Positions 23,601 to 26,600 of a DNA stretch of 64,000 nt are shown here, piece by piece. The DNA is taken from the NCBI GenBank assembly GCA_051362555.1, contig CM120640.1, forward strand, positions 7,812,001 through 7,876,000, written 5' to 3'. Numbering within the stretch: the first letter of the stretch is position 1; every line of letters starts with the position of its first letter. The translations under genes and the position numbers were made by a program. The DNA is from Lingula anatina (Eukaryota; Animalia; Brachiopoda). Under the pieces are notes generated by a model. The model saw only the letters and a program-made list of their open reading frames with translations. It searched no databases and was not told the origin of the DNA.

Positions 23601-26600
23601 AATATTTGGCCTTAACAAAATTTCATTTACAAGTATTTTTTCTATTGACATGGTTCCCATATGAGGTAGCTTTCAATGTCCTAATTTAAACCACATACTA
23701 TACATAAAAATCAAATTAAAAATAATATTACACAAATATACAATTAAAATGCTACAATTTGTATTCAATGTTTAATGGTTAGTGGGATATGGACAAAGAA
23801 TTTGTTTGAAAACTGTGACTGGTTGATTGTAGTGAGTACAATGTGGATGTTAACTGTTTTAACTGTTTAACAAGAGAAAAGAACATATTTCTCATCTGCT
23901 TCTTCATTTATCTGCCATGCAATTAAATCCCTATAAAACAAAACCATACGGAAATAAATTCCTATAAAACAAAATTAAACCACTCTGTGAAAAGAAATAT
24001 ATCTCAATTTTGGTGAGGGGATAAAAGGGCTTGGGTAAACCACACTTCACACAAAATTCCAAACCAAACCAAACCAAGCCAAAGCATAACATAACAAGGT
24101 TTTGAAGCTTTAGCAGGGTTTCTATCCAAACAAATTATATATTATAGAAGACAGCTATCAAAACAAATTACCGGTTCTAGATAGGCATTCTTCAAAATAT
24201 CATCTCATCTTTTTTTTTCTTACATGGAACAAGTGATTCTAATTTCTGTATATCTGTGGTGAAAATGGATAACTACTTCCCCAAGCTCCCCGATGTAGTA
24301 GTTGTTTTGTGATAAACTTTTTCATGATTAATTACCAGCACTTATAAATTTTCTGGCGCAAAAATTCCCTCCCATTCAAAAGTTTGTGTAGTTTCCACAT
24401 CTTTCCATTCATGAACAGGTAAAACTTTTATCATTTAAACATGCAAATCAACATCCAAAAATACTCAAAATATCTGATTGTGAAAAACCTGTCATCTCTA
24501 TGATTATCTACCAGAATAAAAGCAGATATGCAAATTTGAAATATAAGACTATAGAGGAAATATGGCAGTCTAAAGTGTGTACATCAGCTATAGGAGCTGT
24601 CCTCATACTTCCTATGGCATCTTATAGACTGGGTTCCCATACCTAGATCGATCCAACAGAATCGTTCCATCTCTGAGGGGTTTCTCACTAAATTGCTTTC
24701 AGCTTAAGTGGCTTAGATGTCTGGCACGCCTACTAAAGCTGCTAAACAACAATTAATTACCCCTTAGCAGCTTCAGTAGGCTTGACAGACATCTTAGCCA
24801 CCTAAGTTGATCGCAACTTAGTGAGAATCCTCTCAGAGATATATCAATCCACAGTTAGTACGAGAGGGTCTGGGAATGGTCCCATATACTGTTTTCTAGT
24901 GCAGCAACTACTCTGATTCTATATGCTTTCAAGCTGCAGTCCGTTCCATTATCTAAAGAAAGTATTCAACATGGCATTCAAGACTCATTGTAAAATATTC
25001 CCAATTCACAGCGTTCTTTGCTATGGGTATACCTAACGCCAAGCATGTCGTAATAACAGTTGGGAGCCCCTCAGGGATGGCAGCCACAGCCAGGGACACC
25101 GCAATCTTAAAGTAGTAGATTCCGCCCTAGTGGAACAACAGGTAAAAAAAAACAAGGCACAATCGATTTAATTTCAAATCACAAAATGAACTGGAACAAC
25201 AGCAAAAACATCAATCAAGTCATCAGTCACTGTGGTGATATGGAAGGTGGAATCATTTCTTCAATGACAATGATGGTACAACATTAAACTCTGCTGCAGG
25301 CAAACATTACAGAGTCTTGAATGTGCTATTTTCAGTGAGCATGAAGTGTGCATGACATTTTAAATTGTGGGACACCAATTATAAAAAGAAAGACTTCACA
25401 TTTAAACAAAAGACAAGAGGATTTCATTCAAGAAAGAAACATGCACAAGGTTTCAAATTTTGCTTTGCACTGTATTGTATTGTATTGTTCTGCCATCATC
25501 ATCATTATCTACAGAATTGTATGATTCCTTCCAGATCCCCCTCCACCTGTGCAGTATAACTGATATACCACCAGCCAACTGTATGTATGGTAGGTATACA
25601 CATACAGTAGAGCAGTTATTATTACCTAAAGCCAGACATGTAGTGATAACAGCTGGAAGGCCCTCAGGTATAGCTGCCACAGCCAAAGCTACTGCAATCT
25701 TGAAATAGTAGATAGCTCCCTGCAAAGTAAAGGAGTGGGACATTGTGGAACATGGAGAAAAGTGCACAGAAAAGACAAACAAGAGAGAGAATAGTCAGCA
25801 TTCCTTGATTTTTCTTTTATTTATTTTTCTTTTCCTTTTCTTCTTTTTTTTTTTTTTTTTGGGGGGGGGGGGCAATTAATTTCAAATAGTTATAAAAATT
25901 AGGATCATTTCATATAATGAGCATCAATTAAATACAATTTTGCTGTTCTTAATTAGACAAAAAGATTTTTTTTTTTTTTGGGGGGGGGGGGGGTGAAAAC
26001 TGCAATACCAAACAAGGAATGCTGCTTACCATCTCCCAGAAAATGCAGTACTAGAAGTACTATATGTAGTCTAGAAAATCATGCTCAAAGACCTATTCTA
26101 ATGTTCAGATTTCATTACTGTACGAACTCATATATTTCATGTACTCATAATTAATTACTTGAACAATGCCATGCATGTGTGGTTTTTTAAATTGGATTTC
26201 ATTTAAAATGTAGCTGAAATGTTCCTATTTCCATTATATATTTGTACGTGTTTGTTATAATGTGAAAAATAAGTGTGATCGGGGTGTCAAATAAGTGAAG
26301 GTAATCTATTTCAAGGCATTCAGATCAAATCAGATTACAGGGTAACCTTTGATTTAAGAAAAGATATCAAATCTAAAGCAAGATTGATCTCAAATGATTA
26401 GCAATCCTAAGTGAATAGATCACAATTCTTTGGAAACACGCATGCGGTCACCAAAATAGATGGAAACTTTAGACTACATGACATGCCTTATCTGTATCCA
26501 GAGTATCATAGATTGGAAGGAAAAGCCAGTAAATATTGAATGTGCCAATAAATCAGCATCAAACTTAGCAGTGGAAATCCCACAGTGCAACCCAGCTGCA

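Follow-up and report, generated by a model that had tools for sequence, protein, structure and literature searches.

In the Drosophila Na,K-ATPase alpha gene (Atpalpha), the exons of the exon 6 cluster are mutually exclusive and encode part of the ion-binding membrane region; this too is a P2 pump, albeit a different pump, with different helices from those considered here. More generally, tandem exon substitutions are a known class of event, conservative, often tissue-specific and enriched in ion transport, with PMCA, RyR and channel families named among the recurrent cases; the word SERCA is absent from the main text of that survey, whose supplementary lists might name a SERCA event of fly or worm (PMC9741552). 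In SERCA genes, the splicing described in the available text of two reports, for SERCA2a/2b, Artemia, C. elegans and isoforms A-C of Pinctada fucata, takes place at the C-terminus (PMC3527596, PMC6987452). The SERCA gene of the brachiopod Lingula anatina resembles these in that one invertebrate gene gives rise to several pumps, having itself four C-termini, but it differs from the C-terminal splicing described there in having a putative alternative exon that is internal and encodes the Ca2+-binding helix M4. A literature search, conducted largely outside subscription papers, listed nothing that describes an alternative M4 exon, whether in SERCA or in other P-type ATPases.

The window, that is, the whole stretch of 64,000 nucleotides analysed here, carries the SERCA coding gene on its minus strand, where we located it by a motif scan and tblastn. 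The coding span extends over positions 197-51166, with 25 exons up to a long C-terminus at ~5437 and three further terminal exons. The 25-exon GT-AG model was a single solution, and its translation matches P0144 (RefSeq Lingula anatina isoform X1) at every residue, the N-domain exon being 100% identical to that protein. This full-length match, the DKTGT and TGDGVND motifs and an M4 helix identical to that of SERCA1a identify the gene as a SERCA. Exon 2 is a microexon of 18 nt (50784-50801, minus strand). Intron 4 contains two similar copies of one intronic stretch, recognized by their repeated translations (~37350-39500), and translation of intron 16 shows a transposase-like remnant (~17500-18200) that we take to be of Tc1 type.

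Two tandem copies of exon 11 lie between exon 10 (27367-27450, minus strand), which ends in phase 0, and exon 12 (23226-23356, minus strand), which bears the DKTGT phosphorylation motif. Exon 11A (25626-25719, minus strand; 94 nt) encodes residues 291-321 of helix M4 and the first base of G322, in the PEGLPA form. Exon 11B (25033-25126, minus strand; 94 nt) follows after an intron of 499 nt (25127-25625, minus strand) and is an open frame with the same phases, from 0 to 1, the ends being cag...gtaata for 11A and tag...gtatac for 11B. Exon 11A is identical to residues 291-321 of SERCA1a/SERCA2 (PDB chains including 1iwo and 7bt2), so that the numbering is correct and all three changes lie on the 11B side; the collinearity with SERCA1a asserted in a preliminary description of this DNA is thereby borne out. 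Realignment upheld its coordinates as well, together with the three-residue difference and the many third-position changes that it had reported: the copies differ at 21 of 93 coding nucleotides (78% identity), 16 of them at third, four at first and one at second positions, which makes 18 synonymous and three replacement differences. At the protein level, 3 of 31 residues differ, A292G (codon 25123-25121), A301S (25096-25094) and A313T (25060-25058, all on the minus strand). The copies resemble each other only within the exon and at its splice dinucleotides, amid unrelated flanks; an allelic or assembly duplicate was ruled out because the resemblance ends at the splice sites.

Exon 11B keeps V304, A305, I307, P308, E309, G310, L311 and P312. 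The backbone carbonyls of V304, A305 and I307 are Ca2+ ligands of site II. The four site II residues named in the preliminary description (these three and E309) are all retained in 11B, but the description of the site was incomplete, as it also needs Asn796 and Asp800 of M6, the contribution of M4 being described, in the text available, as that of backbone carbonyl atoms (PMC8501872). Like published tandem duplicated exons, as far as the accessible text of two studies describes them, 11A and 11B are adjacent, homologous, of equal length and phase and not a multiple of three nucleotides long, and they belong to an ion-transport gene and differ by conservative changes, with ligands kept; unlike in those cases, their mutual exclusivity and tissue specificity are putative (PMC9741552, PMC4165533).

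The contrast between synonymous and replacement sites is strong. The proportion of synonymous differences is 0.71 (18/25.3 sites) and that of replacement differences 0.044 (3/67.7 sites; Nei-Gojobori, Fisher p = 6.6e-11), corresponding to a dS of ~2.2, a saturated and rough value, and a dN of 0.046. We also simulated neutral change in 4000 replicates per level, scoring those with at most three residue changes and no stop: the probability of this outcome was 0.58 at 0.05 substitutions per site, 0.13 at 0.1, 0.019 at 0.15 and 0.002 at 0.2. Because the probability drops to 0.002 at only 0.2 per site, against a dS of ~2.2, 11B cannot have spent most of its history as a dead exon, and it would have been constrained for at least most of the roughly one synonymous substitution per site that its own branch represents. 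The long purifying selection on both copies that had been proposed is thus supported by the synonymous excess and by the simulation. The nature of the three replacements can be compared with chance: only 14 of the 203 single-base replacements of 11A yield residues known in other SERCAs, all three changes of 11B are of this kind, and three out of three would occur by chance with p ~3e-4 (4e-4 with a second residue set), the tolerated residues being taken from 245 SERCA M4 segments that come mostly from searches not made with 11B, although it was 11B that first led to the echinoderm clusters in this set. Finally, 11B has a GC content of 0.54 and four CpG, while that of the surrounding introns is 0.33-0.36, so that no decay toward intron composition is apparent.

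How the three residues behave in other SERCAs bears on what 11B might do. Across 380 M4 segments, a set enriched by the 11B query, there is hardly any variation in columns 302-312, and G292 occurs in six, S301 in 14 and T313 in 44. The earlier statement that M4 is nearly invariant therefore holds for columns 302-312 and fails for 292, 301 and 313, which belong to the small number of columns with natural variation. In a set retrieved with the N domain, 95 of the 99 M4-bearing proteins (of 120 matches) have A292/A301/A313, and the exceptions include Patiria (T313) and Strongyloides P0258 (G292 and S301). None of the three replacing residues is present in the vertebrate SERCA chains shown aligned, unlike in 11B. 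Echinoderm SERCAs (Holothuria, Apostichopus, Patiria, Acanthaster, Diadema) share PEGLPT with 11B, T313 being found in 17 of 17 M4-bearing members (of 23) of three clusters that were chosen because their representatives carried it; they differ from 11B in keeping A292 and A301, and T313 is their sole form among the isoforms compared, with no alternation between A and T. The combination of S301 and T313 is found in the sole M4 exon (within 3 kb) of an intron-rich, animal-like SERCA locus, L034, in the protist SERCA P0032, and in an unnamed fragment of 51 residues, P0359, that reads like a genomic exon with the borders of exon 11. Three other exon-like fragments, P0004, P0022 and P0370, also have apparent exon 11 borders, the variants seen among the four being S301 with T313, G292 with S301, and V313; these fragments are candidates for 11B-like exons in other animals. 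The survey of PEGLPT forms that had been proposed thus reveals a recurrent natural variant of SERCA (the 17 echinoderm members, L034 and P0032) and not a new motif.

Each of the three replacing residues therefore occurs naturally in other SERCAs, and none of positions 292, 301 and 313 is a Ca2+ ligand. From this occurrence it is predicted that a pump carrying 11B should work; for the same reasons, the hypothesis that the added hydroxyls might tune gating, affinity or the binding of regulators loses weight, its argument being one from position. According to the parts of two structural reports at hand, P308 and P312 form the kink of M4 (PMC7313052), and P312 faces the P domain from near the membrane level (PMC7733806). 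The kink and gate elements have S301 on one side and T313 on the other, which makes a modest kinetic effect plausible by position. No data on A301 or A313 mutants were found in the literature search: in the available text of PMC12296383 Ala313 appears only in blind-docking contact tables, a hint too weak to build on, and none of the residue terms looked for is present in PMC9288429.

It could also be that 11B is used while its changes are near-neutral, the two copies persisting since splicing regulators divide tissues or stages between them, in a subfunctionalisation that requires no tuned protein. That each change is tolerated in nature (T313 in all 17 echinoderm members, G292 with S301 in P0258, S301 with T313 in L034) is favorable to this scenario, and three tolerated changes over a saturated dS are what slow drift under constraint would be expected to leave. 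However, 11A is unchanged from vertebrate SERCA and 95 of 99 SERCAs have alanine at all three positions, so that three changes in one copy make a lopsided pattern; also, S301 and T313 recur jointly in P0032, P0359 and L034, albeit in searches biased toward 11B. On balance we consider the near-neutral scenario rather unlikely.

Whether 11B is included in transcripts can be approached through annotation and splice sites. Exon 11A is present in six of the six distinct RefSeq Lingula proteins and 11B in none, and the exact 11B peptide was absent among the matches listed, both the best 120 of 6017 and 68 of 68, a weak negative given that the sequences are clustered at 90% and that scores were computed for top candidates. 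We scored splice sites with matrices built from the 21 constitutive junctions of this gene, a small set used with leave-one-out. The donor of 11B reaches 0.8 bits and that of 11A 5.5 bits (constitutive range -2.4 to 11.9), and the acceptors 1.4 and 8.0 bits, respectively (constitutive range 2.5 to 13.8), so the acceptor of 11B is lower than all 21 constitutive acceptors and its donor lower than 19 of 21 donors. An AG located 64 nt upstream of the 11B acceptor scores higher, at 5.0 bits; it is a possible competing acceptor, whose use would lead to a stop within four codons. The segment at 25190-25208, which ends in a higher-scoring AG, is a near-duplicate, 61 nt upstream, of the pyrimidine tract of 11B (25131-25147). 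Among the annotated alternative exons of this gene, one has an acceptor of 1.9 bits, near the 1.4 bits of 11B, so a weak site does not by itself disqualify the latter. Exon duplication has moreover occurred repeatedly in this gene, which raises the prior that 11B is real. Taken together, we regard it as quite likely that 11B is used, as a candidate isoform.

The same observations lend themselves to another scenario, in which 11B was formerly functional and has recently been silenced, its splice sites having weakened and the pseudo-exon being too young to show decay. This would account for the absence of 11B from all six RefSeq proteins, for its acceptor being the weakest of the gene and for the stronger AG upstream, and up to ~0.05-0.1 neutral substitutions per site are compatible with at most three changes (probabilities of 0.58 to 0.13). 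It requires, however, that of the long history of 11B we are seeing just the final few percent, and it sits poorly with three replacements that are all of the tolerated type (p ~3e-4 if random), with intact AG and GT ends and with an annotated exon that has a similarly weak acceptor. Recent silencing thus seems improbable to us.

The reading frame constrains how the two exons can be combined. With 11A alone or 11B alone, 3060 nt (1020 codons) are open without a stop; inclusion of both leads to a stop at codon 328 and skipping of both to a stop at codon 302, each far upstream of the last junction. The pair has the sequence features of tandem mutually exclusive exons: they are adjacent, homologous and equal in length and phase, both with AG and GT ends, the frame is kept and coding constraint is detected. 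From this anatomy, alternative and mutually exclusive use of 11A and 11B appears likely. In C. elegans, 14 of 19 exon clusters whose length is not a multiple of three rely at least partly on nonsense-mediated decay, according to the available text of PMC4165533, and the 3n+1 length of the Lingula exons and the stops produced by double inclusion or skipping match this pattern. Steric exclusion is unsupported: branch-point-like motifs are situated 92, 100 and 161 nt before 11B, away from the 11A donor, near which none was found in the 499-nt intron, and at this length simple steric exclusion would work only through a distal branch point. As for RNA docking or selector pairing at the splice sites of 11A and 11B, none was convincing among the 25 longest of 36 inverted repeats. 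The intron after 11B contains an imperfect palindrome of ~170 nt (24669-24840), MITE-like, with arms that are 86% complementary.

The reading that we favor can be formulated as follows. Exon 11B goes back to an old tandem duplication of the M4 exon, and purifying selection has preserved it. Owing to its stronger splice sites, 11A would be the default of the spliceosome, and 11B would replace it in a minor share of transcripts, confined to a particular tissue or stage. Transcripts with double inclusion or double skipping would be cleared by nonsense-mediated decay, so that exclusivity would be the product of this decay and of regulated choice. A pump carrying 11B would work, with every M4 Ca2+ ligand kept and three conservative changes, and its kinetics would be only modestly altered. 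A301S falls within the luminal part of M4, a single turn ahead of the luminal-gate contact of V304, and A313T at the start of the cytoplasmic half, just past the P308-P312 kink; any effect would therefore likely concern how fast M4 moves or how fast Ca2+ enters and leaves, rather than ion selectivity. In short, 11B is a real, old and constrained tandem M4 exon that probably yields a minor, mutually exclusive isoform. The complete chain, from a minor isoform made by alternative splicing to a working pump with a modest kinetic effect, seems to us the better bet, held with some reserve.

Two further explanations fare worse. Exon 11B could be mainly a regulatory poison exon, added to 11A or spliced through the upstream AG so as to lower SERCA levels through decay, and both the stop at codon 328 upon double inclusion and the stop within four codons from the upstream AG would serve such a role; yet a poison exon needs no conservation at the protein level, and the replacement sites of 11B are conserved while its synonymous sites are saturated, making this very unlikely. 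Alternatively, 11B might be artefactual, created by the assembly or by allelic differences, or might be a fragment of some other P-type ATPase gene; this can be practically dismissed, as nothing beyond the exon's absence from annotation speaks for it, against an identity of 78% confined to the exon amid unrelated flanks, intron positions and phases like those of 11A, and best structural-database matches that are SERCAs (E ~1e-11), far ahead of SPCA1 (3e-5).

We looked for B-type isoforms in other species. There was none among the 87 M4-bearing proteins of 96 cluster members listed, all 87 being equal to 11A (five of them Lingula isoforms), nor among the 41 M4-bearing proteins of 46 further members listed, all with A292/A301/A313; in both counts large clusters are represented by 15 listed members each, and a duplicate exon with an identical peptide would not show. 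No second M4 copy was found within 3 kb at any of 37 metagenome loci matching the PEGLPT pattern, a weak comparison given that most are ~50% identical to the Lingula protein and uninterrupted, and probably protist or algal. The matches listed included no other named brachiopod or phoronid. On present evidence, the M4 pair looks lineage-restricted.

Exon 11 is not the only duplicated exon in this gene. Exon 22, which encodes M7, has an upstream copy (13842-13927, minus strand; 86 nt) used by RefSeq isoform X2 (P0266) and a downstream copy (13037-13122, minus strand; 86 nt) used by five of six RefSeq proteins. Exon 23, covering the luminal loop L7/8 and M8, has an upstream copy (8603-8736, minus strand; 134 nt) used by five of six RefSeq proteins and a downstream copy (7784-7917, minus strand; 134 nt) used by isoform X3 (P0263). 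The exon 22 copies are identical at 23 of 28 residues, with five differences and a proportion of synonymous differences of 0.81, and those of exon 23 at 28 of 44 residues (0.76), neither length being a multiple of three; unlike for 11B, both copies of each pair are annotated in RefSeq models. The intron between exons 22 and 23 contains two near-identical copies of an element of ~800 nt, seen as repeated translations (~11200-12800). The gene ends in four alternative C-termini on the minus strand, a hydrophobic read-through tail (~5437-5517) and three short spliced tails (~2248-2313, ~1668-1682 and ~197-253). The long hydrophobic tail is reminiscent of that of SERCA2b.

No isoform pair matching exon 22 of Lingula was found among the pairs of other species examined. 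At the exon 23 region, 12 of the 15 same-length isoform pairs examined show differences, and pairs of this type are found in oyster, clam, scallops, snails, abalones, nemerteans, a bryozoan and Lingula. A tree of exon 23 (44 columns, 26 rows) groups ten 'b' copies at 96/91, among them those of molluscs and nemerteans and the Lingula copy at 7784-7917, with few columns and long branches for Lingula and the bryozoan. The L7/8-M8 pair is thus probably an ancient lophotrochozoan exon pair that predates the split of these phyla. It is better supported than the M4 pair and arguably more interesting, and the literature search found no paper on it. In Lineus, two proteins of the same length (P0161 and P0295) differ by six residues at 187-204, just past the TGES motif, which suggests another independent exon pair in a lophotrochozoan SERCA.

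The significance of 11B is bounded by the fact that its changes are conservative and found in other SERCAs, and that ion transporters are well known for events of this class: it is a known class of event at an unusual site, missed by RefSeq annotation. If it is used, the result is a SERCA isoform absent from annotation, one that exchanges the ion-gating helix itself, and 11A and 11B form a natural matched pair for asking about the roles of positions 301 and 313. More broadly, lophotrochozoan SERCA would have repeatedly gained internal exon pairs. It is conceivable, and we put it forward as a tentative proposal, more doubtful than probable, that regulated splicing switches the Ca2+-gating M4 of the Lingula SERCA, that up to 32 kinetically distinct pumps arise from one gene and that S301 with T313 is a recurrent 'second setting' of the P2A gate. 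If this were true, the M4, M7 and L7/8-M8 pairs and the four tails would do, by exchanging exons of the membrane core, the job that gene duplication did in vertebrates.
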